Shown here: positions 1-64,000 of the stretch, piece after piece
Layout of the letters: the number at the start of each line of letters is the position of its first letter
Position numbering within the stretch: the first letter of the stretch is position 1
Assembly (NCBI GenBank): GCA_963820435.1
Contig: CAWGAC010000018.1
Span: forward strand, 257,544-321,543
DNA length: 64,000 bases
Source: an uncultured Spirochaetota bacterium
Lineage (GTDB): Bacteria; Spirochaetota; Spirochaetia; SZUA-6; Fen-1364
Reading direction: 5' to 3'
Translations under genes and position numbers: made by a program
The notes under the pieces: model-generated
What the model was told of the DNA's origin: nothing
Database searches by the model: none
The model's input: the letters and a program-made list of their open reading frames with translations, nothing else

Positions 1-1
1 T

Positions 2-808
2 CGCCTGCGCAGGCTGCCGAAGCCGGTCATCCATGAAAAGGTCCAGGCGGCGCTCAAGCTGGTGCACCTGGAAGGTCACGAAAACAAGTTTCCCACCCAG
101 ATGTCGGGCGGCGAGCAGCAGCGGGTCGCGATTGCCCGGTGCATCGTGCTGGAGCCGCGGCTGCTCATGCTGGACGAGCCATTGTCCAACCTGGATGCCA
201 AGCTCCGCACCGAAATGCGAAACGAGCTCCACACCCTGCACAGGCGTCTGGGAGTGACGACCATCTACGTCACCCACGATCAGCAGGAGGCGCTCGCCCT
301 TTCGGACAGGATCGTTGTCATGCGCCTGGGCCATATCCAGCAGATCGGCGCGCCCGGGCAGGTGTACGCGGACCCGGCGAACCTGTTCGTGGCGGATTTC
401 ATGGGATTCAAGAACATCTGGGACGCCGCGCTCGGGTCCCTGCGTGAGAACGGGGACACACTGGACGCCGAGCTCACGGTGAGGGGCCTGAGGCTCAAGG
501 CGCGCCTGCGCTACCCTCAGGGTGACCCGCGTCGGGACGCGCTCGTTGCCGCGTTCAAGGCAGGCACGGCCGTGAAGACCGCGATCCGTCCTGAGGACAT
601 CAGGGTGGGCAGGGACGAAAGAGGCGCTCCCGTGCGTTCACGGGTCACCCTCGTGGAGTACCAGGGGCAGACCAGCTACGTGAGCGCGCTCATGGAAAAT
701 GAGACGCCGGTGGAGCTGCGGCCGTCGACGCCGGTGCGAATCGGAGAGACGCTCGAGCTGAACATCGCGCCGGAGAAAGTGTTCGTCTTCGCGGCGGGCG
801 AGGGGTAG
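2..808 (+). CDS. ABC importer ATP-binding subunit (PotA/FbpC/MalK-like), 5' end cut off by the window edge
   Basis: The frame is open from nt 2. It carries the ABC signature MSGGEQQRVAIAR, Walker B LLMLDEPLSNLD, H-loop YVTHDQ and a C-terminal TOBE-like domain. Two permease genes follow directly. Confidence 0.9.
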   Translation, partial: RLRRLPKPVIHEKVQAALKLVHLEGHENKFPTQMSGGEQQRVAIARCIVLEPRLLMLDEPLSNLDAKLRTEMRNELHTLHRRLGVTTIYVTHDQQEALALSDRIVVMRLGHIQQIGAPGQVYADPANLFVADFMGFKNIWDAALGSLRENGDTLDAELTVRGLRLKARLRYPQGDPRRDALVAAFKAGTAVKTAIRPEDIRVGRDERGAPVRSRVTLVEYQGQTSYVSALMENETPVELRPSTPVRIGETLELNIAPEKVFVFAAGEG

Positions 809-811
809 GCC

Positions 812-1669
812 ATGCAGAAAGGCTTGAAAGGGGGCGGCATTCTTCTTCTCCTGCCCGCGATCGTGTTCGTCATCCTCCTGTTCGTCTATCCGTTCCTCTA
901 CGGCCTGTATCTCAGCTTCACCAGCCCCGAGGGGGCTCCGACTCTGGCCAACTACGCGCGCTTCTTCACCGACTGGTGGGAGGCCCGGACAATCTGGGTG
1001 ACGCTCTGGATCGCGCTGCCGGCCACCCTCATCAACGTGATCCTCGCGATCCCCTTCGCCTACCACATGCGCCACGGAATGCGCGGAGAAAAGCTCATCA
1101 CCTTCTTCCTGATCATTCCCCTCACGCTGGGGACCGTGCTCGTGTCTGAAGGAATGCTCAGCTACATGGGACCGAACGGGTGGCTCAACCAGCTTCTTCG
1201 CGCGGTCGGCATCACGCAAGGGCCTGTTCGGTTCACGCACAACTACTGGGGAGTGCTGATCTCCCTGGTGATCCAGGGCTTCCCGTTCGCCTTCCTCATG
1301 ATCCTCGGGTACGTGTCGGGCATCAATCCGGACCTGGAAAAGGCCAGCCAGATGCTGGGCGCGTCCCGCGCGCAGACCTTCGTGCGTGTGCTGTTTCCGC
1401 TCATGGTGCCCGGCATCGCCATCTGTTTCTGCCTGAACTTCGTCATGGCGTTCTCCGTGTTTCCGTCCGCCGTGCTCCTGGGAGAGCCGTCCGGCCCCAC
1501 GCGCGTCATCGCGTACGCGGCCTACCAGTGGGCGCTGGAAAAATTCGACTTCAATATCGCTTCCGCCATCTCGATGGTCATGGCGGCAATAGAGCTGTTC
1601 GTCATCTCCGCGGTCCTGGTCTGGCGGAACAGGATCTACCGGGGCGCGTCAATGGTAGGGAAGGGATAA
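812..1669 (+). CDS. ABC transporter permease (binding-protein-dependent inner-membrane component)
   Basis: 285 aa and multi-spanning, with EAA loop LEKASQMLGASRAQTFVRVLFPLMVPG. It starts 3 nt after the ATPase stop. Confidence 0.9.
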   Translation: MQKGLKGGGILLLLPAIVFVILLFVYPFLYGLYLSFTSPEGAPTLANYARFFTDWWEARTIWVTLWIALPATLINVILAIPFAYHMRHGMRGEKLITFFLIIPLTLGTVLVSEGMLSYMGPNGWLNQLLRAVGITQGPVRFTHNYWGVLISLVIQGFPFAFLMILGYVSGINPDLEKASQMLGASRAQTFVRVLFPLMVPGIAICFCLNFVMAFSVFPSAVLLGEPSGPTRVIAYAAYQWALEKFDFNIASAISMVMAAIELFVISAVLVWRNRIYRGASMVGKG

Positions 1670-1720
1670 CCGCATGCAGCAGAAGGGGCTCACACTGGGC
1701 CGGCTGTTTTCTTTCTCGGC

Positions 1721-2491
1721 ATGATCGTCTACGTGGGAAACGTCCTGGGCATACTCTTCACCGTCATGCTCAACTCGGCCTCGAAGGGCTGGTACTCCGG
1801 TGTCGTTCCGCACTACCTGACCTTGGAATGGTACGGCTACGTGGCGGCCGAGCACGACATCCCGCATCTGCTCTTCATCACCTTTCTGGTGGCCCTTTCC
1901 GTCGTGGCCATTTCCATCGTGATCGCCTTCCCCGCCGCTTATGCCCTCAGCCGCCGCGACTTCAAGGGAAAGGGAGCGCTCCTTTCGGTCTTTCTGCTGC
2001 CAATGATCGTGCCTCCCATGACCTATGGCATTCCACTCGCCGTGGTGCTGTACAAGTTCCACCTGGCGGCGCGCGTCACGGGTGTGATCCTGGCGAACCT
2101 CGTTCCCATCGTTCCTTTCATGATCCTCGTCATGATGCCCTTCATCGAGCAGGTGGGGGTCAATCTCGAATCCGCCGCGCAGATGCTCGGCGCGCGGCGG
2201 CTGACCGTTTTTCGCAAGGTCCTCATTCCCCTCACCCTGCCCGGGATCCTGACCGCCGGCATCCTCTCCGTGGTGAAGACGATATCGATGTTCGAGCTGA
2301 CGTATCTCGTGGCGGGCGGAAGGTCGCAGACGATCGTTGTCGCCCTGTATGCCGACGCATATGCGGCGGGCGCGCGGCCGCCCCAGGCGGTGGATGCGCT
2401 TGCCGTGATCTACTTCCTCACTGCCATGGCGTGCCTCGTGGTGGCCCTGAGATTCGTCAGCCCCACGCAGATGGTCTTCAAGATCAAGTAG
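1721..2491 (+). CDS. ABC transporter permease, second subunit (true start probably 1675 with an indel near 1710)
   Basis: The EAA loop is LESAAQMLGARRLTVFRKVLIPLTLPG. There is no SD before 1721. An ATG at 1675 (MQQKGLTLGRLFSF..) reads into a stop overlapping 1721 in another frame, which suggests a 1-nt indel. Confidence 0.85.
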   Translation: MIVYVGNVLGILFTVMLNSASKGWYSGVVPHYLTLEWYGYVAAEHDIPHLLFITFLVALSVVAISIVIAFPAAYALSRRDFKGKGALLSVFLLPMIVPPMTYGIPLAVVLYKFHLAARVTGVILANLVPIVPFMILVMMPFIEQVGVNLESAAQMLGARRLTVFRKVLIPLTLPGILTAGILSVVKTISMFELTYLVAGGRSQTIVVALYADAYAAGARPPQAVDALAVIYFLTAMACLVVALRFVSPTQMVFKIK

Positions 2492-2496
2492 GAGGC

Positions 2497-3050: not shown

Positions 3051-3515
3051 ATGACCAAAGACGCCGCGGGATACGGAGAGTTTTTCAACGCGCAGAACGA
3101 GATCAACTCACTGGCCATTCACATGCTGGAGGGAATGCTGGGTGAAGAAGGCATCACCCCGCCGCAGTTCTTTACTCTCAGAACCCTGAAAGACCAGGGA
3201 CAGATGTGCAAAATGTCCGATCTCGCGGCAATGAGATTGCTGACACCCGCGGGGGCGACGGGGATCGTCGATAAGCTGATCCACCTCGAGCTGGTGGAGC
3301 GGAAATTCGATGAGAGTGACAGGCGGGTCGTCCTGCTGGCGCTCACCGACCGCGGAGCCGCGACGCTCTCCGGAATGGAACGCAAGATGGAGGCAATGAT
3401 GAGACGGTTTTTCGACGGCATTTCCGCCGGCGACCGGGCGACGTTCCTGCGCATCATCAGGAAATTCAAGGGCTTCCTGAAGGAAGAATTAGGCGCCCAC
3501 AAGGGGAAGTCATGA
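3051..3515 (+). CDS. MarR-family transcriptional regulator
   Basis: The winged-helix pattern is ..LTPAGATGIVDKLIHLELVERKFDESDRRVVLLALTDRGA.. An AT-rich stretch at 2950-3000 upstream is a likely promoter/operator. The stop overlaps the next start (ATGA at 3512-3515). Confidence 0.85.
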   Translation: MTKDAAGYGEFFNAQNEINSLAIHMLEGMLGEEGITPPQFFTLRTLKDQGQMCKMSDLAAMRLLTPAGATGIVDKLIHLELVERKFDESDRRVVLLALTDRGAATLSGMERKMEAMMRRFFDGISAGDRATFLRIIRKFKGFLKEELGAHKGKS

Positions 3516-4994
3516 GAGCGCAACGAATGCCACTGAGTACAGTGGCGGCACGAATGCCACTGAGTACAGTGGCGGCACTATCGGTCATCGTGCTTGCCAC
3601 GGCTCTTTTCCCGCTGGTCCCGGCCTCGGCGCAGGAGTCCACGGTCACGCTTTCCCTCGCCCAGAGTGTTGATGCCGCGCTCGCGCAGGGGGCCGACAGC
3701 ATTGTTCTGCAGAGGAACCTCGATATCGGCAGGGAGCAGTACCGGCTCAGCGTCTCCCAGAACTCCTTCACTCTCCGAGGGTCCCTTGGAGAGAGCGCGA
3801 CGTACGGCTTCGGCAATTCCGGACTGCTCGCCGGCAGCTCTCTCCCGTCGGGTTTCGCCCAGACTCCCCAGGCCGGTCTCTCGCTCGCCGCGCCGCTGAC
3901 AAGCGTCGCACTCAGCGTATCCCCGTACGTCGCGGAGAGCCCTCTGGCCGCCGCCCTTCCCTCCTTTTCATCGTTCCTGCCGTCCGGTCCCACGAGCAAT
4001 GTCGGCCTCAGCCTGAGCCAGACCTTGTGGAGCGGCTACCCGGGAGGCACGGCCCGCGCCGCGATGGAAAAGAGCCTCCTTGCCCTGCGCGGAAGGGAGC
4101 TTTCCTCCGCGTCCGGGCAGGTTGAACATCGTCTCTACGCTGACCCAGACCTACTTCGTGATGCTCGGGTCCCAGCGGAACCTGTCCGTGAAAAAGCAGA
4201 TTCTCGCGCAGCAGGAGGCCCTGAAGGCGCAGATAAGCGCGATCCATGAGCTCAGGCAGGCAAGCGATGTGGACCTGAGAAGCGCGCAGATCAATGCGGA
4301 GAGCGCGGCGATCGACGTGCGGAGCGCGGAGAATGACCTTCGCATCGCCCGGATCAGGCTGGCGCAGCTTATCGGCTGGCCGCGTGACAGGGAGTTTGCC
4401 GTTGCCGAAGAGGACGTGCGGAACATTCCGGCAGGAAGCGTGGAGGAGGCCGTGGCGGAGGCGCTGAAGCGGAGAACGGAAATCCGGCAGATCGAGCTTA
4501 ACCGACAGTCCGCCGCAGTGGATCGCGCGCTCATTGAGGGGCAGACGTCACCCACGGTCAGCGTGAGCGGGGGCATAAGCCTCATCCTCGGCTGGCAGGG
4601 AGACACCGCGGGCCAGGGCAGCGCCGGTGTGACGATCGGGCTTCCTATTCTCGATGCCGGGGCCTCCGCTCACCAGCGGGAAGCCAATCGAATCCAGGAC
4701 CAGATCTACGGCGTCCAGGAGGCGCAGCTGCGCGCCGGCATCGCGACCGATGTCGAGCAGGCATACGCGCTTATGCAGATCAACCTGGAAAGGCTCGAGG
4801 TCGCGAAGCTCACCGCGGAAAAGTTCGACCTCAAATTCAAGCTCAAGAAGACCGAAGCGCAATACGGGGCGGCGACGAACCAGGACCTGCTGGACGCATC
4901 CGTCGATACCGCCAACGCGCAGTCCGCCCTGGCCGGAGCGCAGAGGGACGCCCAGCTTGCCGTCCTGCAGCTGAGCAACGCCATTGGATATTAG
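3512..4994 (+). CDS. TolC-family outer-membrane efflux protein, frame broken once near 4112
   Basis: The N-terminal half is in the frame of ORF 3512..4249 (..LSLSQTLWSGYPGGTARAAMEKSLLALRG..). The rest is in the frame of ORF 4080..4994 (LNIVSTLTQTYFVMLGSQRNLSVKKQIL...). It has TolC-like coiled-coil repeats and the shift lies in ccggg. Confidence 0.85.
3524..3577 (+). repeat. perfect 2 x 27-bp tandem duplication inside the TolC-like signal peptide
   Basis: cgaatgccactgagtacagtggcggca occurs at 3524-3550 and again at 3551-3577. It is in frame and duplicates (R)MPLSTVAA. Confidence 0.95.
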
Positions 4995-5004
4995 GAGAAA
5001 CGCG

Positions 5005-6271
5005 ATGAAAAGACTTTCGAGGCTGGTGTGCACAGGCATAGGTCTCTCTGCTCTGGCGCTCATTCTGGCCGCGACGGGCTGCGCGCCGAAACAAAAATCG
5101 GCCGACCCTTCCGGCGGCGCCGCCCGCACCGCGCGCGGGCCCGGCGTGGCGGAGATCGCGGTCCAGGCAGTGCCGGTAGTGGTCGCTCCGCTGGTGGTGG
5201 AGCGCCAGACATCCGGCACGGTAAAACCCGTCATGCAGAGCCAGGTCGTCGGACAGGTGGGCGGCGTCGTGGCAAGCGTATTGAGGAAAGCCGGTGACCG
5301 GGTTGACAAGGGAGACGTCGTCATTCAGCTCGATGACGCCCAGTACCGGCTTTCCGTGAAGACCGCCCAGGCCTCCCTGGATGCGGCGAATATCAATCTT
5401 GCCACCGGACAGGACACGACGGCGCAGGCGAGCCCCAAGCTGGACCTGCAGGTCCGCGCGGCGGAATCCGCGGTGTCGGTGGCGCAGCGGAATTATGACG
5501 CTCGCAAGGCCCTGTTCGACCTGGGAGGCGCCACTGGCTCCGACCTGGACAGTGCGAAGAGCGATCTGGACATGGCGCAGGCAAACCTCGAGGCTGCCCG
5601 GACGGCTCTGGATCAGAATCAGAAGGCACCGACCCAGAATATCGCGCAGCTGAAGCTTGCCGTGGAGCAGGCGGACTTCGCGCTCCAGCAGGCCCAGCTC
5701 AACCTTCAGCACGCTTCCATCAAGGCCCCCTACGCGGGACGACTCGTCACGGTGAATGTCATGACCGGCGAGTTTGTCTCTCCGAACGCGCCGGCCTTCG
5801 TCATCGCCAGCCAGGATCGCGAAGTGGATTTCAACGTGCCCCCCGCGGACGCGGCGAGCCTGCCCGTGGGAGCGCCCGGTGACCTTTACCCTGAACGGAA
5901 CGCGTCACTCGCTGAGGGTGAGCCAGGCGCCCGAAGTGCCCGTCAATGGAGTGGTCCCCCTGGTGGCAGCGGTCCCCGGCTCCCTTCCGATCCCCTTTGG
6001 GGCCATCGGCACCCTGAGCTATTCAATGACCCTTGCCCGGGGAGCCCAGGTCCCGACCGGCGCCCTCCAGACGAACGAAAACCAGAACTTCGTGTACGTA
6101 GTCGAAGGGGGAAAGGCATTCGGGCGGAATATCACGGTCCTGGCGGAAAGCGGGAGCACCGCTGCCGTGACAGGGGTGAGCGCGGGCAGCCTGGTCGTGG
6201 TGAATCCGCCGCCGGGGCTCCTGGACGGGTCCACCGTGAAAACCCTGCCTCTTGCCGAAGGAACCAAATGA
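5005..6271 (+). CDS. RND efflux periplasmic adaptor (HlyD/MFP family) lipoprotein, frame broken once near 5880
   Basis: SD aggag, lipobox LAATGC, and a biotinyl-like hairpin and coiled coil in the frame of ORF 4984. The C-terminal beta-barrel part (VTFTLNGTRHSLRV...VVVNPPPGLLDGSTV) is in the frame of ORF 5774..6271. The stop overlaps the RND start. Confidence 0.85.
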
Positions 6272-9200
6272 AAACCACGCGTGACTTCCAGGCCCGGATA
6301 TTCAACAGGATCAATCCCGCGGTCCGTTTTTCCGTGACCCGCTACGTGTTCGCCATCGGCGTGTTCGTCGCCATTTTCGCCTTCGGCGCGATATCGCTCT
6401 TCAACATAGGGGTCGACCAGTTTCCCTCAATCAACTTCCCCTTCGTCGTGGTCACGACCGCCTACCCGGGAGCCTCGCCGAGCGTCATCGATCAGCAGGT
6501 CACGCAGGTGATCGAGAACGCCGTCTCCACTCTGAGTGGAATCACGGACTTGAACTCCACGAGCTCCACGGGGGCAAGCCAGGTGACCATCAGCTTCGAC
6601 CAGTCCACCGACCAGGCGAGCGACGTGAACCAGGTTGCGTCCCTTGTGTCAGCGGCGGCCCGAAGGCTTCCGCAGGGGGTGAATGCGCCCATCGTGCAGA
6701 CGTTCAACCCCAGCGCCATCCCCGTTGTGCAGTTCGGAGTATCGGGAGCGGGGGCGAGCCTCGGGGAGGTCAGCACCTACGTGACCGACGAGCTCACGCC
6801 TCAGCTCGAACGGGTATCCGGCGTGGCCAATATCCAGGTGGACGGAGGGCCGTCACGCCAGTTCCAGGTCCTGCTGAATCCGGACCGGCTGCAGTATTTC
6901 GATCTGGCCCCGCAGATCGTCGTCGGCGCCATCTCGGCATCCGCCATCAACCAACCGATCGGGACCATCAACAGCCACAACAACGCCCTTACGTTTGCAA
7001 CGGAAAACGTTCCCGCGGACACGGAGAAGATAGCGAATACGCTCGTGGACCCTGCCCGGGGCATCCGGGTGAGCGATATCGCGACCGTGCGGGACCTGCC
7101 CGTCTCGACGAACTACGCGCGCGTGAATGGGAAACCCGTCGTTCTGGTTTCCATCCAGAAAACCGCGACCTCCAACACGGTCGCTGTCGTGCGGAACGTG
7201 CGAAGCCTTTTGAATGAAACGAAGCTTCCGGCGGGATATGAAATCAACTACAGCAACGACACGACCGCGCCCATCCAGGCGTCCCTCAACTCGACCTATC
7301 GTGAGATCCTCCTGACCGCGATCGTCGTGGCCCTGATCGTTCTGCTTTTCCTCGGCAGGCTCAACACGGCCTTTTCGGTGATCCTTGCCGTCCCCATCGC
7401 CCTGTCGGCTGCGCCGGTGCTTTTCAATCTCGCCGGCTTCACCCTCAATCTCGTCTCGATGCTCGCCATGATCGTGGCCATCGGGATCGTGGTCGACGAC
7501 TCGATCGTCGTGGCGGAGAATGTCGAACGCTACCGCGTCATGGGATTCGACCAGAAGGAATCAGTGCTCAAGGGAGCGAGCGAGATCTTCAGCGCCGTCG
7601 TGGCCGCCACCCTTTCTCTGCTTTCGGTCCTAATCCCCGTGAGCTTCATCGGTGGAATCATCGGGGATTTCATCAGGCAATTCGCCCTGGGTCTCGCCGC
7701 CGCGGTCGCGTTTTCACTCCTGGAAGCGGTCCTCTTTCTCACCGTGCGTCTCGCGTACACGCCGGAATCGAACCGGACGCTCGACTGGCGCGATTTCGCG
7801 CACAGCTTCGGGAAGCTGGGAGATTCCATGCGCTGGGGCCTTGCCGCGTGGAGAAAAGCCGGGGGCATCATCGTCGCACTCGCCGCAATCATCATTCTCC
7901 TCGCCACCCGCCGCTTCACTGTCCTGCCCGCAATGCTCCTCTATCCCTTCATCCTGGGCGTCCTGCATTACCTGGGGCGGCTCCTCCTGAGCTTCTTTCA
8001 GGCCCTGACCACGACGCTGCACGCCGGGACGGAGGCGGTGCTGGAGTGGGTGCGCGAGGGCTACGCGAAATCCCTTGTCGGGCTCCTCGAGCGCAGTGTC
8101 CTCGTGCTGGTCGTGACCGCAGGCGCCCTTGTCGCCATCGCCGTCCTCCTGCTGCCCAGAATCACCTTCAGTTTCGCCCCCCAGAGCGACAATGGCTCGA
8201 TGACGATCAATCTCGTCATGCACACAGGCACCACCCTGCCGTCGACAAACGCCACGACGGGAAGGCTGGAGGCGTATCTCCTGGGACAGCCCGAGGTGAC
8301 GACCGTCCAGACGGTGGTCGGCAGCGTGGGCATTTTCACCGTCGGCGTGAGCCGGCCCGAGAATACCACGATGATCGTCCGGCTCGTGCCCCTGGCCCGC
8401 AGGATCGGTCTGTTCGATCTCATGGAGAAGTACCGCCGCGAAATGGGCAGCCTCCTTTTCCAGGATGACCCCTCTGCCACGCTCAGCGTAAGCGCGGGGG
8501 GAGGCCCGGCAGGACAGGGCTCCACTCTCACTCTGAGCCTCCTGTCTTCAAACCAGGATCTTCTTGCGGAGAGGAACACGAAGATCCTTCAGGTGGTGAA
8601 GGGGAATCCCTACGTGCTCGGTGCCACGTCCAGCAGCTCGAGCGTGACCATCGAGCGGGACTTCAAGCCGAGCGAATCGCAGATGGAAGGGACCGGCATC
8701 AATCCCAGCGCGGTCGCGAGCCTTCTTCAGACCTATACCTCGGGAACACAGGCGGGCAGCTCGCAGATCGGCGGACAAAGCTATCCCATAATGGTCCAGA
8801 TCGATCCCACGTATCTTGCCGACGGGCAATCCCTCATGAACCTGCCCATCTACTCGGCGGCACAGCGCGCCAAGCTGCAGGTGGGCCAGCTGGGCAGCCT
8901 CGTCATCCGACAGTCGCCCATTACGGTCACGCGCTACAACCGCCTCTACACCTCCAGCCTTTCCATCAACCTCGCGAAGAACGCCCCTCCGGCCCTCGCC
9001 CTCGAGAACACGCTGGCCGCCGAGCTCACCCGGCAGGGACTCCTGGACAGCAGCGTCACGCTGGGCTCGGGCGGATCGTTCTCACCTGCCGCGCTGGCGA
9101 GGCAGCTTGCCCGGACCGGCATCACCGCGTTCCTCCTCGCGCTGTTCCTCGCGTATCTCGTAATGGCCGCCCAGTTCAACTCATGGCGCTATCCGATCTA

Positions 9201-9636
9201 CCTTCTCCTGCCCGTACCCCTTGCCATTGTCGGCGCCCTGCTCTTCGTCGCTCTCCTGGGCGGCGGGCTGGACACGTTCGGGCTCCTCGGCATGCTCCTT
9301 CTTATCGGTCTCTCGGCGAAAAACGCGATCCTGTACCTCGACTTCGTCGTCGAGCGCCTCGGCAAGATGCCGTTGAAGGAAGCCCTGATCGATTCTGCGC
9401 GGCTGCGCTTCCGCCCGATCGTGATGACGACACTGACGGTTCTCGTGATCGCGGGCCCCCTGGTGTTCGGCCGCGGAGAAGGATCGGAGTTCGGCCAGAG
9501 GCTCGGCGTGGTGATGTTCGGCGGGATCCTGACCTCCGCGGTCCTTACCTTCTTCGTGGTCCCCGCCGCGTTTTTCCTTTTCGAGCGCAAGCGGTCGTTG
9601 ACACGCGATTCCGCGCTCACGAAGATTCAGCCATGA
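6268..9636 (+). CDS. RND (AcrB/HAE1-type) inner-membrane efflux transporter, intact
   Basis: 1122 aa starting MKTTRDFQARIFNRINPAVRFSVTRYVFAIG.. with 12-TM architecture and two large periplasmic loops. It forms the 3' part of the artificial 1550-aa ORF 4984..9636. Confidence 0.9.
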   Translation: MKTTRDFQARIFNRINPAVRFSVTRYVFAIGVFVAIFAFGAISLFNIGVDQFPSINFPFVVVTTAYPGASPSVIDQQVTQVIENAVSTLSGITDLNSTSSTGASQVTISFDQSTDQASDVNQVASLVSAAARRLPQGVNAPIVQTFNPSAIPVVQFGVSGAGASLGEVSTYVTDELTPQLERVSGVANIQVDGGPSRQFQVLLNPDRLQYFDLAPQIVVGAISASAINQPIGTINSHNNALTFATENVPADTEKIANTLVDPARGIRVSDIATVRDLPVSTNYARVNGKPVVLVSIQKTATSNTVAVVRNVRSLLNETKLPAGYEINYSNDTTAPIQASLNSTYREILLTAIVVALIVLLFLGRLNTAFSVILAVPIALSAAPVLFNLAGFTLNLVSMLAMIVAIGIVVDDSIVVAENVERYRVMGFDQKESVLKGASEIFSAVVAATLSLLSVLIPVSFIGGIIGDFIRQFALGLAAAVAFSLLEAVLFLTVRLAYTPESNRTLDWRDFAHSFGKLGDSMRWGLAAWRKAGGIIVALAAIIILLATRRFTVLPAMLLYPFILGVLHYLGRLLLSFFQALTTTLHAGTEAVLEWVREGYAKSLVGLLERSVLVLVVTAGALVAIAVLLLPRITFSFAPQSDNGSMTINLVMHTGTTLPSTNATTGRLEAYLLGQPEVTTVQTVVGSVGIFTVGVSRPENTTMIVRLVPLARRIGLFDLMEKYRREMGSLLFQDDPSATLSVSAGGGPAGQGSTLTLSLLSSNQDLLAERNTKILQVVKGNPYVLGATSSSSSVTIERDFKPSESQMEGTGINPSAVASLLQTYTSGTQAGSSQIGGQSYPIMVQIDPTYLADGQSLMNLPIYSAAQRAKLQVGQLGSLVIRQSPITVTRYNRLYTSSLSINLAKNAPPALALENTLAAELTRQGLLDSSVTLGSGGSFSPAALARQLARTGITAFLLALFLAYLVMAAQFNSWRYPIYLLLPVPLAIVGALLFVALLGGGLDTFGLLGMLLLIGLSAKNAILYLDFVVERLGKMPLKEALIDSARLRFRPIVMTTLTVLVIAGPLVFGRGEGSEFGQRLGVVMFGGILTSAVLTFFVVPAAFFLFERKRSLTRDSALTKIQP

Positions 9637-49263: not shown

Positions 49264-50208
49264 TCACTCCCCGGAGGGTCGTCCGTCGGATTTCGGCAGT
49301 TGATTCAGGTCGTACGGCGTTGCCTGGTAGACGCAGTAGTTGAGCCAGTTGGAATAGAGCAGGTGGGCGTGGGAACGCCAGGTCACCATCGGCTCCCGGG
49401 TCGGGTCGTCACCGGGGTAATAGTTCTTCGGGACCGCGATGGGAAGGCCCTTTGCCACGTCACGATCGTATTCCGCCTTGAGGGTGAGCCTGTCGTACTC
49501 GGGGTGACCGGTGACGAACACCATTCGCCCATCGTCCGAGGTCGCCATGTAGACTCCGGCTTCTTCGGAAACGGCAAGCAGCTTCAGGCTCTTCACCGCC
49601 TCGATGTCCGCTCTCCGCACCTCGGTATGCCGCGAATGCGGCGCCATGAACACTTCGTCGAAGCCCCGCAGGATCGGCTCGTGAGGGTCGAGGACCTTGT
49701 GCGCGAACAGGCCGAACACCTTGCAGGGGACCGCGTACTTGGGAACCCGGAAGTGATGATACAGCGCCGCCTGCGCCCCCCAGCAGATGTGGAGGGTCGA
49801 CCAGACGTTGGTGCGGCTCCAATCCATCAGCCGCACCAGCTCGGGCCAGTAGTCGACGTCCTGGAACGGCAGGCTTTCCACGGGGGCACCGGTGATGACC
49901 AGCCCGTCGAAGCGCTCATGCAGCACGTCGTCCAGGGACTCGTAGAACGCGTCGAGATGCTCGGACGGCGTGTTTTTTGACTCATGCGTGCCCATGCGGA
50001 TGAAGGTGATATCTACTTGCAGGGGGCTGTTGCCCAGGAGCCGGAGGATCTGGGTCTCTGTCACGATCTTCGTCGGCATCAGGTTCAGCACGGCGATGCG
50101 CAGCGGACGAATGTCCTGATGGACGGCCCGCTCCGTGGTCATGACGAAGATGTTCTCTTCACCAAGGATCTTGCGGGCGGGCAGGTCGTTGGGGATCCTT
50201 ACGGGCAT
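49264..50208 (-). CDS. metA: homoserine O-acyltransferase MetA (MetAA/MetAS type), intact
   Basis: [52 protein letters not shown].. Confidence 0.9.
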
Positions 50209-51407: not shown

Positions 51408-52996
51408 GCGCGCCGCCTTCCTAGTTGTCGCCGCTGGTCGGCCATGTGGTCGAACATGGCCTTCAGCATGTCGCGGTAGGCGGTCTTCACGCCCTCCTCC
51501 CGCTTGGAGACCATGGAGTGCTGGTGCAGCCCCTCCAGCACGAACTCCATGCCCAGGGCGAGCCCGTCCCCGTCCTTCAGGTCCAGGTGCTTGGCCGCGA
51601 TCTCCTTCAGCCCGGTCACCTTCTCCAGGCGCTTCACGTAGTCGTCATGGGGCAGCTCGTCCGATGTCTCCACGGTGTTGCCCTTGGAGAACCACGCGAG
51701 GATGGGCTGGAAGGGGGACGGCTCCTGCCGGCCCGCGGACTGCATCCTCCTACGTCCTCCCTTTCTTCTCTTCTTCTTCTTCGGAGTCGGGTCCGGGAAC
51801 CAGCGGTGGAAGGTCTCCTTCACCGCTTCCCCGATGATCTTGCGCGCCACGATGGCGGCGCCCTGCTGCTCGCCCTCGTAGACCAGCTCCACCTTGCCCG
51901 TGATGGCGGTGACGGCCGCGTGCAGGTCGCCGATCCGCGGGTAGACCTGCTTCTCCTCCTGCACGATGGCGCGCCGCTCCATGTTGCTCATCACGTTCTC
52001 CAGCAGGGAGATGCTCATGCGCGCGGAGACGCCCGAGGCCTGGTTCACGTACTCGCTGGCGCGCGCGGCGAACGCCACCTCCTCCACCAGCTCCCGGTAC
52101 CAGTCCGGCATCACCAGCTCGATGCCGCACTCCGCGCTTCGTCCACGCCTCCTGCGCCGTGATCCGCATGGCCGCCTCCCGGTCCTGGGGATAGTGGGTG
52201 ATGATCTGGGAGTCGATCCGGTCCTTCAGCGGCGTGATGATGTTGCCCCGGTTGGTGTAGTCCTCGGGGTTCGCCGAATAGACCATGAGGATGTCCAGCT
52301 GCATGCGGATGGGGAATCCGCGGATCTGGATGTCTTTTTCTTCCATTATATTCAGCAGGCCCACCTGGATCCGCGGCGGGAGGTCGGGCAGCTCGTTGAT
52401 GGCGAAGATGCCTCGGTTGGTCCGCGGGATGATCCCGAAATGGATGACCTCCTCGTCCGCGTAGGCCAGCTTGCGCGTGGCGGCCTTGATCGGGTCGATG
52501 TCGCCGATGAGGTCCGCGATGGTGACGTCCGGCGTGGCAAGCTTCTCCCGGTAGCGGGCCTCGCGGGGCAGCCACTCGATCGGGGTCGGCGTCCCCTAGA
52601 GTGGCAATCGCCTCCCTGCCCTTCCTGCTCACGGGCGCGAAGGGGTCGTCGTTTGTCTCGGTTCCCGCGATGACGGGCATCTGCTCGTCGAGGAACCGCA
52701 CGAGACCGCGCAGAATGCGGGTCTTGGCCTGGCCGCGGAGGCCCAGAAGGATGAAGTCGTGCTTCGAGAGGATCGCGTTGACCAGGCCGGGGATGACGGT
52801 GGTATCGTAGCCGATGATGCCCGGGAAACAGCTCCTCCCGGGAGCGGAGCATGCGCACGAGGTTGGCGCGCATCTCCTCCTTCACGGTCCGCCGCTCGTA
52901 GCCGGCCGATTTCAGCTCTCCAAGGGTTTTCGGAAAATTCAACCTCCCTCCAATCTTCACTGAAAAAGGTACTGAATTCCGGAGGGAATGGGGCAA
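51359..52996 (-). CDS. AAA+ ATPase of the Mg-chelatase ChlI/BchI-like family (often auto-annotated sigma-54-interacting), frame broken about 3 times; ends approximate
   Basis: [29 protein letters not shown]|[34 protein letters not shown]..|[51 protein letters not shown]..|[23 protein letters not shown]... The shifts are near 52820, 52590 and 52140. Confidence 0.8.
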
Positions 52997-53064
52997 GAAA
53001 GCCTCTGCCCTCCTCCCCTCGCGACGCCGCGTGAAATTCTGCTATACTGCGGCGATGCAGCGGA

Positions 53065-53978
53065 TTGCGATCTGCCAGCCTTCTCCTCTTCCTGCTGCCT
53101 CTGGGGTCCCTCTTCGCCGCGGACGGCGCGCGTGCCGCCGCCGGCAAAGAGGAGGGCTTCAACCTGTCGACGGCTCTGTTCGCCGAGCTTACCGACAACT
53201 TCGAGCATCCCTATGCAACGTTCGACCTCGCAATCGGGAGCCTGCACCTGCCCATCAAAGTCACCAAGCATTTCATCCTCATTGGGGTCGTCGGTCTCCT
53301 CGTGCTGGCCAGCATGTTCTACCTGGCGCGCAAGCTCCGGGATCCCTTCAAGAAGCCCACCCGCCTGCAGAGCCTTTTCGAGACGCTCATCAGTACATGC
53401 GCGACACGGTCTACCAGCCGGTCCTGGGGGCCGAAGGCAAGAGGTTCTACCTCCTGTGCTTCTCCTTCTTCCTGTTCATTCTCTACTCGAACCTCCTGGG
53501 CATGATTCCCCCATTCGCCCCTGTGCGGCCTGCCGGAGAAAGCGAGGCGGTCTGGCTCGGCGGCGCGGTGACGGGCAACCTCGCCACCACGGCCGGCCTG
53601 GGGATCATCACGTTCTTCGTGCTGAACATCGCGGGCATGCGGAGCAAGGGAATCATCGGGTACTGGAAGGACCTCGTGCCGCACGGCACGCCGGGATGGA
53701 TGGCCCCTTTCACGCTGCTCTTCGAGGTGGTCGGCATTTTCTCCAAGACAATCGCCCTCATCATGAGGCTCTTCGCCAACATGATCGGCGGACACGTGGC
53801 GATCCTCCTCATCCTCCTCCTCATATTGAAGTTCCAGTCTCTCGCAATCGGTCCGGTGGCCGTCCTCGTGGACCTTGCCATCTCTGCGCTGGAGTTGTTC
53901 GTCGCCGTGCTGCAGGCTTACATATTCTCTTTTCTCTCGGCCATGTTCATCGGTCTTGCCATAAGAAAACACGCATAG
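53065..53978 (+). CDS. atpB: F0F1 ATP synthase subunit a, frame broken once near 53390
   Basis: The TTG-start N-terminal part ends ..SLFETLI. It then continues QYMRDTVYQPVLG..LYSNLLGMIP..IALIMRLFANMIGGH..LQAYIFSFLSAMFIG in the frame of ORF 53031..53978. A 1-nt deletion in atc[c]ag explains the shift. Confidence 0.9.
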
Positions 53979-54033
53979 TGTCCAAGCGGTTCCCTGGGGT
54001 TCCGCGGAAAGACTTCTCGGAAGGAGTACGAAT

Positions 54034-54286
<253 letters not shown>

Positions 54287-54298
54287 GAGGGGACCGGT

Positions 54299-54825
54299 AT
54301 GGCTCTCCTCCGCGTAGATCCCGGCCTCGTCATCTGGCTGTGGATCACCTTCGGCATCATCCTCCTCATCCTGCGGCTCACCGTGTGGGGCAGGATCACC
54401 GGGGCGCTGGACAAGAGGTCGCAGAAGATCGCGACGGACCTGACGTCTGCCCGGCAGGCGGGAGAGAAGGCCGCCGCCGTGCTCGCCGAGTACGACCAGA
54501 AGATCCGCGAGGGAAAGGCCGAGGCCGCGCGCATCATCGAGGAGCGCGCGCACGGAAGCCTCGCGGCTGCGGGAGGAGCATCCTCCTCCAGTCGCACGCA
54601 GGAAGCCCGCGAGCAGATGGACAGGGCGGTGCAGGAGATCGAGAGGGCACGGGAGGATGCGGAGCGGGCGCTGCGCGGCCAGGTCGTCTCCCTCTCATTC
54701 TCCATCGCGGACGCCATCCTGAAACGGGAGACGGGCACATCGGACAACAGGGTGTTCGTCGAAGAGTTTGCCGACAAGCTGATTGCCGGCGCCCCGCCGG
54801 CCCCGGCAGCGGCTCCCGCAACTGA
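54299..54825 (+). CDS. atpF: F0F1 ATP synthase subunit b (3' end unresolved)
   Basis: [48 protein letters not shown].. is a typical b-subunit anchor plus helix. As assembled there is no in-frame stop before atpH. A TGA in another frame at 54823-54825, 12 nt before the atpH ATG, is the likely true stop. Confidence 0.75.
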
Positions 54826-54836
54826 GGAACGCGCGG

Positions 54837-55374
54837 ATGACCAGCGGCATTTCCCGCAACTACGCGCGCGCGCTGTTCGATCTGGCCGTGGAAACCGGCG
54901 ACCTCCTCGCCGTGGAAGCGGACCTCGACACGGCGCGCGACCTGCTGTATACGGCGAAGGACGTGCGCACGTTCCTGGGCAACAGGCTGATCAGCCGGAC
55001 GACAAAGAAGAACCTCTTCCGGCAGGCGTTCGAGGGGAAGGTGGACTCCCGGCTGATGATCCTCCTCTACCTGCTGGCCAACCGCGGCCGCACGGAGCTC
55101 CTCGGTGAGATCGCGGAGGAGTACGAGAGGCTTTCCCGGCTGGCGCGCGGGCGTGCGGAAGGTGAAGGTCTTCTCCGCCTTCCCCCTCGGGGCGGAGGAG
55201 AAGGCGCTCATCACACGCTCTCTGGAAAAGCGGTTGACGGCCAGCGTGGAGCTGCGGACGGAGATTCGCCCGTCGCTCATCGGCGGCGTCGTCGCGGAGA
55301 GCGAAGGTCAGGAGATCGAGTTCAGCATCGAGGGACAGCTCAAGGGCCTGGCCGACAGGCTCGAAGGAAAGTAA
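54837..55374 (+). CDS. atpH: F0F1 ATP synthase subunit delta (OSCP), frame broken once near 55150
   Basis: [34 protein letters not shown]|[46 protein letters not shown].. Confidence 0.85.
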
Positions 55375-55382
55375 GGGACATT

Positions 55383-56884
55383 ATGCGCATCAACCTCGAA
55401 GAGATATCGACGCGGATCAAGGAAGAGATCCGCAACTACTCCAAGAACCTGACGGTGGACGAGGTCGGGACCGTGGTGGAGCTCGGGGACGGCATCGCGC
55501 GCATCTACGGCATGCGCGGGGCCATGGCCATGGAGATGCTGGAGTTCGAAACGGGCGTCTACGGGCTCGCGCTGAACCTGGAAGAGGACAGCGTCGGCGC
55601 GGTCATCCTCGGCAACTACCTGGACCTGCACGAAGGCGGCAAGGTCAGGAGAACGGGCCGGGTCCTGGAAGTGCCGGTCGGACACGAGCTCGATCGGCCG
55701 GGTGGTCAACCCCCTGGGCATTCCCATCGACGACAAGGGCGAGTTGAAAGCCGTGCGGACCCGGCCGGTGGAGTTCAAGGCGCCCGGCATCCGCGACCGG
55801 CAGCCCGTGAAGGAGCCCCTGCAGACGGGGGTGAAGGCCATCGACGCGATGGTCCCCATCGGCAAAGGACAGCGCGAGCTTCTGATCGGGGACCGGGGCA
55901 CCGGCAAGGAATCCCTGGCCATGGACGCCATCATCAACCAGAAAGGCAGGGACGTGATCTGCGTCTACGTGGCCATGGGGCAGAAGGCTTCCATGGTGGC
56001 GGGCATCGTGGAGGCGCTGCGCGCGCGCGGCGCCATGGAGCACACCATCATCGTGGCCGCCACGGCCGCCGAGCCCGCGGCTCTGCAATACATCGCCCCC
56101 TACGCGGGATGCGCGATGGCCGAGTACTTCATGTACGAGGAGCACAAGGACACTCTCTGCGTGTACGACGATCTTTCGCGGCAGGCCAACGCGTACCGGC
56201 AGCTTTCCCTGCTCCTGCGCAGGCCGCCCGGGCGCGAGGCGTACCCCGGGGACGTTTTCTACCTTCATTCGCGCCTGCTGGAGCGCGCCGCGCGGCTTTC
56301 CAACGAGCTGGGCGGCGGCTCTCTCACTGCGCTCCCCCTGATCGAGACCCAGGAAGGTGAGGTCTCCGCGTACATCCCCACGAACGTGATCTCGATCACC
56401 GACGGCCAGATCTACCTGCGCACGGACCTGTACAACTCGGGCATCAGGCCCGCCATCGACGTCGGCCTGTCCGTGTCCCGCGTGGGCGGCAACGCGCAGA
56501 TCAAGGCGATGAAACAGGTTGCCGGCTCGCTGCGCATCGACCTGGCCGCCTATCGGGAGCTGGAGGCCTTTTCCCAGATGGGGACAGAGCTGGACAAGGC
56601 AACGCAGAACCAGCTCGCCCGCGGGGCGCGCATGGTGGAAGTGCTCAAGCAGCAGCAGTACAGCCCGATGCCCGTGGAAGAGCAGGTCATGATCCTGTAC
56701 GCCGCCACCCGCGGGTCACATGGACGACGTGCCGGTGATGCGCGTGCGGGAGTTCGAGACGAGGTTCCTCACCTGGCTGCGCGCTGAGAAGCCGGAAATA
56801 CTGGCGGGCATCAGGAACCTCGGGACGCTTTCGGAGCCCGAGGTGCTCACCGCGGCCATGGCGGCATTCAAGAAGACGTTCTAG
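55383..56884 (+). CDS. atpA: F0F1 ATP synthase subunit alpha, frame broken twice
   Basis: ..VPVGHEL|[25 protein letters not shown] (Walker A)..[27 protein letters not shown]..|[13 protein letters not shown]... The shifts are near 55690 (an extra g, not in a homopolymer) and 56715. Confidence 0.95.
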
Positions 56885-56887
56885 GCC

Positions 56888-59506
<2,619 letters not shown>

Positions 59507-60070: not shown

Positions 60071-60944
60071 TCACCTTCCCAGCAGCTTCCGACATTCAAA
60101 GAGCACACGTTCTGCACTGATGCCGTCCATGCCCGCGCCGGATGAGTGAACGACGTGCACCGTGCGCCCGCGCGGCAGCCACACCCGTGGATCGCTTGCG
60201 CCGAACAGGACAACGGTCGGACATCCGCACGCGGCAGCAAGATGCGTCACTCCCGAGTCATTTCCGAGATACAGCCGGCAGCACGCAAGAGATCCGGCGA
60301 GCGGGTGGGGTGCTCAAATCACGCCATGTGCGCGCATCTGACGGCAAGACGATGTCCGACTCCGCGGGCCCTACGATCCAGGCGACACTCTCTCCCTCAG
60401 ACTCCAGGCATCGCGCCACCTCCGTGAATCTCGCGAGAGGCCAGTTCTTCTGGGAGCTCCCGCTGCCGGGATGTACGGCGACCGTGGTCCGCGCAGGGGG
60501 CCGAGCCGGGCCCGCGGAATCGACACGGGGCACCCGCTCTTCCTCGGTGAATGCGAGCTCGGGAAACAGCGAAAGGTGATAGTCGACGATGGGGGTCGGG
60601 CTGGAGGGAAAGGGGTCCTGGCGGAGGATCGAGCGCACGCCGGCAGCCTTCAGCCGTTCCACGAGGGGTGAGGTAGCATGAGCAAACAAGAGGGCAGAGG
60701 TAACGCGGGAGAGGCGCTCCACCAGCAGGGCCGGCGTGCCCGTTTCGGCTGAAAAGAGGGGCGCACAAAGGGTGGACTCGACATCCAGGACCTCGTCGAA
60801 CATGGACGTGGCGAGTGCCGCATATGCCGGCTTGCCCAGGAGAACAATCCGCTCCCCCTCGTGAAGCCTGCGCCACGCGGCCATTGCGGGCAGCGTGGTG
60901 ATGAAGTCCCCGAGGGCACCTGCATGGTAGACCAGGCTGGTCAT
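60071..60944 (-). CDS. glycosyltransferase family 9 (LPS heptosyltransferase-like), frame broken once near 60295
   Basis: MTSLVYHAGALGDFITTLPAM..VAVHPGSGSSQKNWP.. then in another frame ..CRLYLGNDSGVTHLAAACGCPTVVLFGASDP.. Confidence 0.8.
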
Positions 60945-61008: not shown

Positions 61009-62264
61009 ATGCATGCGGCAACCAACAAGAACATCCTTGTCATCAACTGTGGCAGCTCATCCCTGAAGTACGAGGTCTGGCAGATGCCCCAGCGCGTCAG
61101 CCTTGGCCGCGGCCTGGTCGAGCGGATCGGCGAGCTGAAGGGAAGGATCACCCAGAAGACGCCCAAGGGGCGACATCCTGCGGGAGGTGCAGGTCCCGCA
61201 CCACAAGGCGGCCATGGAGATGGTGTGCGAGGCGCTCACGGACCCGGACCAGGGAGCGCTCGGCGGCCTTGAGGAGATCGCGGGTGTCGGGCACCGGGTG
61301 GTGCACGGCGGCGAGCAGTACGCCGCCTCGGTCGTCATCGACGACGACGTGCTGAAGGCGGTCGAGAAGAACGTGGAGCTGGCCCCCCTGCACAACCCGC
61401 CCAACCTCATCGGCATCCGCGAGGCGCAGGCGGTGCTCCCGAACGTGAAGCAGGTGGCCGTCTTCGACACCGCGTTCCACCAGACCATGCCCCCGGCCGC
61501 CTACCTGTACGGCCTGCCCTACGAGCTGTACGAGAAGTACAAGATCCGCCGCTACGGCTTCCACGGCACCAGCCACCGCTACGTGGCCGCGCGCGCCATG
61601 GAGCTGCTCAAGCGCTTCCCCGAGAACACGAACGTCATCACCTGCCACCTCGGCAACGGCGCCTCGGTCACGGCCATCGAGCACGGCAGGTCCATCGACA
61701 CCTCCATGGGCTTCACGCCCCTGGAAGGCCTGATGATGGGCACGCGCAGCGGCGACATCGATCCCGCCATCATCGATTTCCTCGAGACGGCGCGGGTACA
61801 GCTCCACGGAGGTCAACGCGCTGCTCAACAAGAAGAGCGGGCTCCTGGGCCTCTCGGGGATCTCCAACGACCTGCGCGACCTGGAAGCGGAGGCGGCAAA
61901 GGGCAACCAGCGCGCCCTCCAGGCGCTGGAGGTGTACGCCTACCGGGTGCGGAAGTACGTCGGCGCGTACGTGGCCAACCTCGTGAAGGTCGACGCCCTG
62001 GTTTTCACCGGCGGCATCGGCCAGCACGGCGTGAAGATGCGGGAGCGGATTTGCCACCGGCTGGAGAACCTCGGTATCTTCATGGACTACGCGGCGAACA
62101 CCGCGCTGGGCTCGGGAGAGGGGGTCGTCTCCGCGCCCTACTCGCCCATCGCGATCCTCGTGGTGCCGACGAACGAGGAGCTGCAGATCGCGATCGACAC
62201 GTACGATCTCATCTTCGGCGCCGAGAAAGCTTTCCGGAGGCGCCGGAGCGACGTGTCTCTTTGA
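61009..62264 (+). CDS. ackA: acetate kinase, frame broken twice
   Basis: [16 protein letters not shown]..|[51 protein letters not shown]..|[40 protein letters not shown]. The shifts are near 61165 and 61793. Confidence 0.95.
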
Positions 62265-62280
62265 ATGGGGGGTTTCTTTC

Positions 62281-62664
62281 ATGATAGAGCTGGATTTCAC
62301 GAAGCTCGACGGGCTCGTCCCGGCGATAGCGCAGGATTGGCAGACGGGCGAGGTTCTCATGGTCGCCTTCATGAACAAGGAGTCCTGGGAGCTCACCCTG
62401 AAAACGGGGATCATGCACTACTGGAGCAGGTCCCGGAGCAAGCTCTGGAAGAAGGGTGAGAGCTCCGGCAACATCCAGGAGGTGAAGGAGCTGCGGATCG
62501 ACTGCGACGAGGACTGCGTGCTGGCCAAGGTGCGCCAGATCGGAGACGCCGCCTGCCACACCGGTTACAGGAGCTGCTTCTACCGGGTGGTCGAGGGCGG
62601 GGCGATGCGCGTGGACGGCGTGCGGGTGTTCGACCCGGCCGAAGTATACGGAGAGAAGAAATGA
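62281..62664 (+). CDS. hisI: phosphoribosyl-AMP cyclohydrolase, intact
   Basis: ..[72 protein letters not shown]. Confidence 0.9.
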
Positions 62665-63557
62665 AGGATCACGTGATCAAGCTGGGCGTGCCCAAGGGAA
62701 GCCTCGAGCGCGCCACCATCGAGCTTTTCCAGAAGGCGGGCTGGAAGATATCGCTCTCCGAGCGCTCGTATTTCCCGTCCATCGACGATCCCGAGGTGAG
62801 CTGCAACCTCGTGCGCGCGCAGGAGATGGCGCGCTACGTGGAAAACGGCGTGCTGGACGCGGGTCTCACCGGCATGGACTGGATACTGGAAAACGAGGCG
62901 GACGTGGAAATCGTCACGGACCTCATCTACTCCAAGGCAAGCACGAGCAAGGCGCGATGGGTGCTGGCCTGCCTGGCATCGTCCCCCATCGAACGCCTGG
63001 AGGACTGCGCGGGAAAGACCATCTCCACGGAGCTCGTGGGATTCACGAAGAGATACTTCGCCGAAAGAAACATCCCCGTGAAGGTCGAGTTCTCCTGGGG
63101 GGCAACGGAGGCAAAGGCGGTGGACGGCCTGGTGGACGCCATCGTGGAGGTCACGGAGACGGGCAGCACGCTGCGCGCGAACGGTCTCAAGATCGTCCAC
63201 ACCCTGCTGGAGACCAACACGAAGCTCATCGCCAACAAGACGGCCATGAAGGATCCGACCAAGAAGCGCAAGATCCAGCACATCGCCCTGCTCCTGCGCG
63301 GCGCGCTTGCCGCGGAGAACATGGTCGGGCTCAAGATGAACGTGCCGGAGGCGAGCTTCGAAGAGATCGTGAAGCTCCTCCCCAGCCTCACCTCGCCCAC
63401 GGTGTCGCGGCTGCACAACGCCGCGTGGTTCTCCGTGGAGGTCATGATCCGTGAGTCGGTGGTCCGCGAGCTGGTCCCCCTGCTGATCGAGAAGGGGGCG
63501 GACGGGATCATCGAGTATCCACTCAACAAGGTCGTCAACAGGAGCGACGCGCTGTGA
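62661..63557 (+). CDS. hisG: ATP phosphoribosyltransferase, long form, intact
   Basis: ..[21 protein letters not shown].., ..[17 protein letters not shown].., and a C-terminal regulatory domain. The start overlaps the hisI stop. Confidence 0.9.
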
Positions 63558-63571
63558 CCGCGCCGACAAAT

Positions 63572-63618
63572 GCCACGGAATACGCGAGTACGCGCGGGAC
63601 GCGGTACCGTGGCCGCGG
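63572..63618. repeat. REP-like element
   Basis: gCCACGG-aa-TACGCGAGTACGCG-cgggacgcggta-CCGTGGccgcgg. It shares the TACGCGAGTACGCG box with 25246 and 26465 and the CACGG/CCGTG arms with 26433 and 59561. Confidence 0.75.
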
Positions 63619-63624
63619 ACGCGC

Positions 63625-64000
63625 ATGAAGCAGTACCTCGAGCTGTGCCGCCACATCCTTGCGCGCGGCGCGGACAAGCCTGACCGCACGGGGACCGGCA
63701 CGCGCAGCGTCTTCGGATGGCAGATGCGCTTCGACCTGCAGGCGGGATTCCCCCTTCTCACAACGAAGAAGCTCAATACCAGGGCCATCATACATGAGCT
63801 GCTCTGGTTCCTTCGCGGGGAGACGAACGTGCGCACGCTCCAGGACGCGGGTGTCCATATCTGGGACGAGTGGGCGGACACGCAGGGCGAGCTGGGACCC
63901 GTCTACGGCCGGCAATGGCGGTCATGGCCCGCCCCGGACGGCGGCTCCATCGACCAGATCGCGCGCCTGGTGGAGAGACTGAAGGCCGAGCCATGGTCCC
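63625..64000 (+). CDS. thyA: thymidylate synthase (ThyA), 3' end beyond the window
   Basis: [68 protein letters not shown].. The frame is open to the window end, so it is absent from the ORF track. Confidence 0.95.

Follow-up and report, generated by a model that had tools for sequence, protein, structure and literature searches.

Does an uncultured bacterium of the Spirochaetota really carry shifted reading frames throughout its F-type ATP synthase operon and in many other conserved genes, or did the shifts arise when its sequence was determined? The question is raised by a stretch of 64,000 nucleotides (GenBank assembly GCA_963820435.1, contig CAWGAC010000018.1, positions 257,544 to 321,543 of the forward strand), the whole of which we refer to as the window. 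An earlier note, drawn up from the sequence alone, had described about 45 frame-disrupting insertions and deletions (indels) in more than 20 genes and had argued that they were not old pseudogenes but either errors of consensus or assembly or very recent events. The frame breaks are indeed present in the deposited sequence, and they are more numerous than had been counted, our gene-by-gene tally giving about 55 frame-disrupting events in the coding sequence of about 29 genes. More than 20 independently made public assemblies contain every broken gene in intact form, and it is therefore almost certain that the breaks arose as sequencing or consensus errors, which upholds the earlier reading. 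On all the evidence given below, we consider it very probable that the frameshifts are errors of the deposited consensus and are absent from the organism's own DNA.

The window and its public relatives

The window has a G+C content of 63%, with a very strong third-codon-position G+C signal. When codon usage was followed through all six frames by a Viterbi procedure, long single-frame stretches alternated with same-strand frame changes every few hundred bases, and these changes were densest at 15.4-18.5 kb and 51-62 kb. Neither an Rfam scan nor a tRNA scan of the window gave a hit. An alternative genetic code, or in-frame stops, had to be considered for positions 1-2488 and was rejected, since three intact ABC-transporter genes abut there in one frame.

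A scan of genome contigs with the RND pump protein placed the organism among uncultured peat and soil Spirochaetota, the matches being Microflora Danica (MFD) Nanopore bins and SPRUCE peat metagenome-assembled genomes (MAGs). The scan returned no representative of the same species, the closest match having 83% amino-acid identity. The reference set for base-resolved alignment consisted of near-identical public peat-metagenome contigs (94-100% identity), taken from JGI peat metagenomes and from megahit or SPAdes assemblies in ENA, which jointly span window positions 9,057-64,000; the alignment covered 54,232 bases. Within the first 9 kb, frame breaks were located by tblastn with more distant relatives only.

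The public contigs are nearly clonal. Pairs of them differ by 0-54 mismatches per 7-22 kb, and compared with each other they show only two one-base gaps in about 214 kb of pairwise alignment, one of them intergenic and the other the third base of an alternative hisI start, neither lying within a gene body. The exact 664-residue MacB-like protein of the window (19126-21120, minus strand) was found on at least 22 public metagenome contigs and the exact HisG (298 residues, 62661-63557) on at least 21, while a public variant of the ABC-2 permease (267 residues) is present on at least 24. Exact-protein look-ups with six guessed open reading frames (ORFs) of the window (812-1669, 6268-9636, 49264-50208, 33521-34261, 62281-64 and the called protein P0001) gave no match. 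The full lengths of the affected proteins in the public contigs are listed in Table 1. That the public contigs might be the erroneous side was rejected, since more than 20 assemblies, produced with different assemblers, gave rise to them, and they encode full-length Pfam architectures.

The indels are private to the window

The alignment contained 72 indel events, and at 69 of these (53 insertions and 16 deletions) the window differs from every public contig covering the site, with 1 to 10 contigs per site; the other three are polymorphic. Over the same bases there are 762 private substitutions. Nearly all events involve a single base. The larger ones are a CG insertion at 36652-3, an in-frame deletion of 6 nt at 63594-8 and, at 51.74-51.77 kb, three insertions with a net gain of 3 nt, and a few tight indel clusters lie in non-coding DNA at 49.2 kb. 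With each indel taken out, the pieces are free of stop codons and join into normal proteins. Pfam profile positions run on consecutively across the breaks (Acetate_kinase 2-44, 54-251 and 255-391; ATP-synt_ab_C 1-71 and 73-114), and, for the genes searched in this way, tblastn gave matches split over frames and not single-frame matches. By our own tally, made with no formal test, about 8 of the 57 base-resolved indels are intergenic, compared with roughly 8% of the sequence, and coding sequence has therefore not been spared.

Selection on the broken genes

Across all compared genes, the codons that differ between the window and the public contigs comprise 431 synonymous (78%) and 123 non-synonymous differences. 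None of the 554 is a nonsense codon, in agreement with the earlier observation that none accompanies the shifts. Between 9 and 31 kb the counts are 97 synonymous against 34 non-synonymous, with 93 of 131 differences at codon position 3 and with 92 transitions and 48 transversions. When only codons beyond a broken gene's first frameshift are counted, in the original frame, there are 305 synonymous and 71 non-synonymous differences and no stops, where neutral change would be expected to give 29% synonymous, 68% non-synonymous and 2.3% stop (P=5.8e-96; for the lack of stops, P=1.4e-4). In atpD there are 85 synonymous and 11 non-synonymous differences, and the AtpD piece at 58189-58938 (250 codons), which lies wholly out of frame in the window, has about 75 single-nucleotide polymorphisms (SNPs) but only three amino-acid changes.

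Judged by these codon comparisons, the broken genes bear a strong signature of purifying selection even past the first frameshift. The shifts must therefore be younger than essentially all of the divergence, and this simultaneously in 29 genes, a single gene having up to five independent shifts with no neutral substitutions alongside. Pseudogene-rich genomes such as those of Mycobacterium leprae and of recently host-restricted symbionts likewise hold many frameshifted genes, housekeeping genes included, but those genes carry nonsense codons, ratios of non-synonymous to synonymous rates (dN/dS) near 1, deletions and eroded motifs. The broken genes of the window showed none of the marks of relaxed selection by which old pseudogenes are recognised, whether dN/dS near 1, nonsense codons or eroded motifs.

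Indel density follows haplotype divergence

The indels are over-dispersed in 1-kb bins (index of dispersion 2.19, p=1.6e-6), as the earlier note had held. The indel-free blocks that it named were borne out for coding sequence. The clean status of 6268-9056 rests on an intact ORF of 1122 residues and on tblastn to relatives. A connection with strain mixture had also been suggested, and at kb scale the density of indels does follow the departure of the window from the abundant public haplotype, with a Spearman coefficient of 0.71 (p=2.8e-9) between the per-kb counts of private SNPs and of indels. Bins with at most three SNPs hold 7 indels in 23 bins, and bins with more SNPs hold 59 in 30 (binomial p=7e-9). 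The indel rate is about 2 per kb where the window diverges from the abundant public haplotype and zero over 8.3 kb where the two are identical. On the scale of nucleotides no such association was found, the median distance from indel to SNP being 24.5 nt compared with 22 nt expected for random positions in the neighbourhood (P=0.72). Since indels are no nearer to SNPs than chance would place them, the link with divergence is a property of kb-scale segments and not of local misalignment.

Over positions 9123-64000 the window is a mosaic relative to the nearly clonal public peat population, blocks of 3-8 kb with no SNP alternating with others that are 1-10% divergent. The extremes are seen, for example, at 18500-22500 and at 58000-59000, and nearly all of the SNPs in the atpD region, which number 75 per kb, are synonymous. 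Either peat Spirochaetota populations have really recombined to give this mosaic, or the assembly is chimeric or collapsed. Two G-run length polymorphisms, at 62267 (the alternative hisI start; shared with one of six public contigs) and at 11758 (intergenic; one of eight), are common to a minority of the public contigs and may be real variation rather than error.

Spectrum of the indels

Short G/C runs had been named as the setting of many of the indels, but most sites are not of this kind. Among 46 base-resolved insertions, 31 extend no homopolymer, and G was inserted 22 times, C 13 times, A 7 times and T 4 times. The three examples given at the time turned out to be an extra C before TGGGG at 27008, a missing T at 38377 and an extra A at 33075. 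No slippery heptamer or long homopolymer is common to the shift sites, the contexts of which are heterogeneous.

One motif was enriched. Of the 57 base-resolved indels, 21 have a CCGG within 6 nt, against 8.1 expected (P<0.0005), and CCGG is the only one of the motifs tried to be enriched, GATC, GCGC, CGCG, GGCC and CTCGAG showing no such proximity. The recurrent change is CCGG to CCGGG or CCCGG, which is the equivalent event on either strand. CCGG is as frequent in the clean blocks as elsewhere (7 per kb), yet not one site is altered there. The motif-linked share of the indels points to a systematic, platform-related error, for which methylation-dependent Nanopore miscalling at CCGG would be the obvious candidate. 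The enrichment and the recurrent change resemble the known basecalling errors at methylation motifs; the differences are that only about a third of the sites in the window are linked to CCGG, that CCGG in the clean blocks is unaffected and that methylation of CCGG in this organism is hypothetical.

Individual genes

The breaks are set out in Table 1. All of the genes named in the earlier note are broken, but the cNMP-binding protein has two breaks where one had been counted, the atp operon has 20 where at least 14 had been counted, and the SprA-related gene, with its missing base at 15829, had been overlooked. The 13-nt insertion that had been described in atpE is absent, a single extra A being found there instead.

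For the TolC-like gene, tblastn with the full-length ORFs of 13 relatives passes from frame 2 to frame 3 at about residue 195, with the OEP match on the second piece, and for the RND adaptor gene the same search with 40 relatives passes from frame 1 to frame 2. At each of the five sites in the histidine kinase gene, all ten of the ten public contigs differ from the window, and its codon differences are 29 synonymous and 11 non-synonymous. Among the called proteins already on record is P0001, a 445-residue mgtA fragment of the window. In the AAA+ ATPase gene there are three to four frame breaks, and the three further insertions at 51740, 51751 and 51768, which net +3, may be real in-frame variation. 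All eight genes of the atp operon are intact in three to six public contigs, and the indels of the window are private against every one of these contigs.

Table 1. Broken genes, clean blocks and CCGG-type changes in the window, with protein lengths in the public contigs
Feature	Position	Strand	Public length (residues)	Indels and remarks
TolC-like outer-membrane efflux gene (Pfam OEP)	3487-4991	+		one break at about 4116-4126
RND adaptor (HlyD-like) gene (Pfam HlyD_3, HlyD_D23)	4985-6268	+		one break at about 5840-5898
Clean block (RND pump, MFS, FecR/DUF6600)	6268-15828			sole indel the G-run polymorphism at 11758
SprA-related gene	15365-15834	-		C-run short by one base at 15829/30, near 5' end; one more C in 9 of 9 public contigs
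arfB (RF-1 domain)	16008-16425	-	138	extra G 16022 (CCGG to CCGGG)
HAMP/HisKA/HATPase histidine kinase	16422-17784	-	453	+C 16701, +C 16783, -1 at 17069/70, +G 17191, -1 at 17255/6
Response regulator	17781-18435	-	217	extra G 18252
Largest clean block (MacB/MacA/OEP/PHP/DHH genes)	18253-26506			8.25 kb without indel; 0-3 private SNPs per kb
cNMP-binding protein	26558-27843	+	427	extra C 27008, extra G 27785
GH42 beta-galactosidase	27891-29916	-	674	extra T 28334
mgtA P-type ATPase	30059-32677	+	871	extra G 30563, C 31329, C 32575; four frame pieces in tblastn with intact homologues
PTS EIIA-like protein	32699-33508	+	268	extra G 32877, A 33075, C 33448; four frame pieces in tblastn
EBP/EXPERA family protein	36153-36706	+	183	CG insertion at 36652-36653 (CCGG to CCCGGG)
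PfkB sugar kinase	38027-38976	-	316	one T missing at 38377/8
gpx glutathione peroxidase (GSHPx)	39344-39842	+	165	extra G 39695
Clean block	39696-43333			no indel
Hypothetical protein	42829-43384	-	184	extra G 43334
Hypothetical protein (probably the 'lipoprotein' of the earlier note)	43461-44544	-	360	extra T 44002
Protein described earlier as 'FG-GAP protein'	44541-47200	-	885	extra G 44869 and 46053
htpG (Pfam HSP90)	47197-49050	-	616	extra C 47302, near 3' end; tblastn split at residue 589/590
VWA-domain protein	50317-51412	-	363	one base missing at 51167; compensating -1/+1 pair 51353/51357
AAA+ (AAA_5-like) ATPase	51422-52940	-	504	extra bases 51440, 52134, 52820; break at about 52580; four tblastn frame pieces
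F-type ATP synthase operon atpBEFHAGDC	53055-59506	+		20 frame-disrupting one-base indels, as follows
atpB			307/329	53071, 53390
atpE			83	54095 (extra A)
atpF			174	54543, 54579, 54598, 54791, 54824
atpH			178	55148
atpA			499	55692, 56712
atpG			313	57131, 57389, 57527, 57605, 57684
atpD			470	58164, 58188, 58939
atpC			88	59247
GT9 glycosyltransferase	60071-60944	-	290/307	extra G 60312
ackA acetate kinase	61009-62264	+	417	extra C 61171, extra A 61787; Acetate_kinase match in three frames
CCGG-type changes	16022, 17191, 18252, 27785, 32575, 33448, 52820, 36652-3			the last a CG insertion

Origin of the frameshifts

What has to be explained is a set of indels that are private to one record, younger than the divergence shaped by selection, blind to the difference between coding and non-coding DNA and clustered with haplotype divergence. 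The length of the source contig, 341,833 bp, together with this error profile makes a long-read, probably Nanopore, metagenome assembly the most likely source. The relatives of the organism are peat and soil Spirochaetota MAGs, many of which are Nanopore-only bins made with Flye and Medaka, and in a rough count that includes paralogues the RND-pump homologue was split over frames at 10 of 28 MFD Nanopore-MAG loci compared with 3 of 47 others. The three split loci outside MFD all come from Stordalen 'fen' bins (within the GTDB representative loci L098-L172).

We propose that, where the haplotype of the window is that of the abundant, nearly clonal population, which over 20 short-read assemblies have likewise sampled, many or accurate reads would back the consensus and the sequence would come out clean. 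Where the haplotype lies 1-10% away from that population, only the reads of the rarer variant would be available, or polishing reads would not be applicable, and one-base insertion and deletion errors would survive in these divergent segments at about 2 per kb. The subset with CCGG changed to CCGGG or CCCGG resembles a methylation-associated basecalling error. Several routes could lead to this state. Strain-specific coverage may have been low in a long-read-only Flye and Medaka assembly, as in the related MFD bins; indel-only polishing may have been done with short reads of the dominant strain; gaps may have been filled with long reads within a hybrid assembly; or the consensus of two populations may have collapsed.

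The gene fragmentation known from long-read assemblies (Nanopore or PacBio continuous long reads) has much in common with the state of the window, since there too one-base indels split conserved genes into adjacent ORFs, no nonsense codons appear and the rate depends on read support. The IDEEL test serves to measure such fragmentation, and proovframe is among the tools that patch it. Split pump genes are also present in sister Nanopore MAGs of the same clade, and frameshift-fragmented genes have been documented in Nanopore MAGs below about 40x coverage (PMC9262707). The classic errors, however, are homopolymer deletions, whereas in the window insertions dominate (53:16) and two thirds lie outside homopolymers, and its errors are confined to blocks unlike the co-sampled abundant haplotype and not evenly spread.

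Several observations weigh against consensus error as we have described it. The excess of insertions and the lack of a homopolymer bias are unlike the textbook Nanopore profile of deletions in homopolymers. Frameshifts are missing from two regions that are 1-3% divergent, 39.7-43.3 kb and 62.3-63.6 kb. Conversely, the indels at 33448, 33512 and 34302 sit where SNPs number only about 1-2 per 250 bp relative to one public contig (L174), in a block that has few private SNPs relative to the main public contigs. Inside the divergent bins the indel count is itself correlated with the SNP count (rho 0.57), which a pure on/off model of coverage does not predict. A 50-mer of the divergent atpD haplotype of the window, with the indel optional, had no match in the JGI metagenome contigs, and an indel-free copy of exactly this divergent haplotype could therefore not be shown. 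Finally, the sequencing technology, like the coverage or polishing route behind the frameshifts, is an inference.

In a variant of the artefact reading, the divergent blocks would be no real haplotype but a collapsed consensus of the abundant clonal population and a co-occurring relative at roughly 90-97% identity, the polisher having turned mixed pile-ups into a patchwork of alleles together with the indels. Blocks of kb scale in the window have either 100% identity to the public population or 1-10% divergence from it, the divergent haplotype was not found in the JGI metagenome contigs, and the indels rise with the SNPs even inside divergent bins. On such an account misalignment in mixed pile-ups would be looked for beside SNPs; this was tested, and the indels are not adjacent to SNPs at the nucleotide scale. 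The predominance of synonymous SNPs fits a real haplotype, though a patchwork of two real haplotypes would look alike. We regard a collapsed consensus as possible but rather unlikely.

In a further reading the frameshifts would be genuine and very recent, a decaying or mutator lineage having lost dozens of genes, the F-ATPase operon among them, within a short time. The deposited sequence does contain the indels, these do cluster in the blocks that set the strain apart from the public population, and an F-type ATPase is possibly not strictly essential in a fermentative spirochaete. The absence of nonsense codons and the 305:71 ratio past the first frameshift stand against such decay, however, as do up to five independent indels per gene of 1-1.4 kb without accompanying neutral substitutions and the fact that the indels avoid coding DNA no more than intergenic DNA. 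The insertions, mostly outside homopolymers, are unlike the spectra of mismatch-repair deficiency, the pattern linked to CCGG recurs, clean blocks of 8 kb alternate with three indels per kb, and the more than 20 other assemblies lack all 69 events. Genuine recent mutation is thus very unlikely. It is just as hard to credit its more specific form, a natural peat-spirochaete strain caught immediately after a burst of one-base insertions, possibly targeted to CCGG and confined to recombined divergent segments, in which about 29 genes, that of the F-ATPase included, were inactivated. A last reading, in which recoding of some kind (programmed ribosomal frameshifting, transcriptional slippage or another mechanism) would let the shifted genes be expressed, has in its favour only the family-typical sequence that carries on past each break. 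Both +1 and -1 events occur, several to a gene, 31 of 46 insertions lie outside runs with no slippery heptamer or long homopolymer in common, and the orthologues in the same population are unshifted, so that recoding is effectively excluded. We accordingly return to errors of the deposited consensus as by far the most probable origin of the frameshifts.

Other features of the window

A direct repeat of about 105 bp (89% identity) was found at 10890-10994 and 15932-16037. The first copy comprises the 3' end of the MFS transporter gene and a stem that is rich in G+C and resembles a terminator. Situated between arfB and the SprA-related gene, the second copy has the appearance of a leftover from a duplicated gene end. 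Within the FecR/DUF6600 gene, at 13737-13914, a 66-bp tandem repeat is polymorphic in copy number and stays in frame, the public versions of the protein having 713 or 691 residues. Synteny around the EBP and sigma70 genes differs between public haplotypes (L177:1-4000 and L173:4600-12175), one public contig carrying argS and a CAP-domain gene in place of PAP2, sigma70 and DUF2807, and another carrying GH2, ankyrin and secretin genes. Downstream of thyA-folA, about 2.2 kb past the 3' end of the window, the public contigs contain an IS91-type transposase gene (Zn_Tnp_IS91; L012:12586-13137), at which several of the short-read contigs stop.

Implications

The frameshifts are not a biological feature, and their value is that of a warning flag on the gene calls in the window and in the MAG. 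In roughly 40 kb of the 64 kb the gene calls are unreliable, with ORFs fragmented or fused. Pseudogenes, split genes, novel small ORFs or fusions reported from the window, and probably from the rest of the MAG, should first be compared with the intact public haplotypes. In long-read MAGs of strain-mixed communities more generally, error density may vary more than 7-fold over a few kb, following strain-specific segments, and a clean stretch therefore tells nothing about the stretch next to it. If it is true that only the mosaic of identical and 1-10%-divergent blocks is real, it would mean that recombination between peat Spirochaetota populations has taken place on a large scale and very recently.

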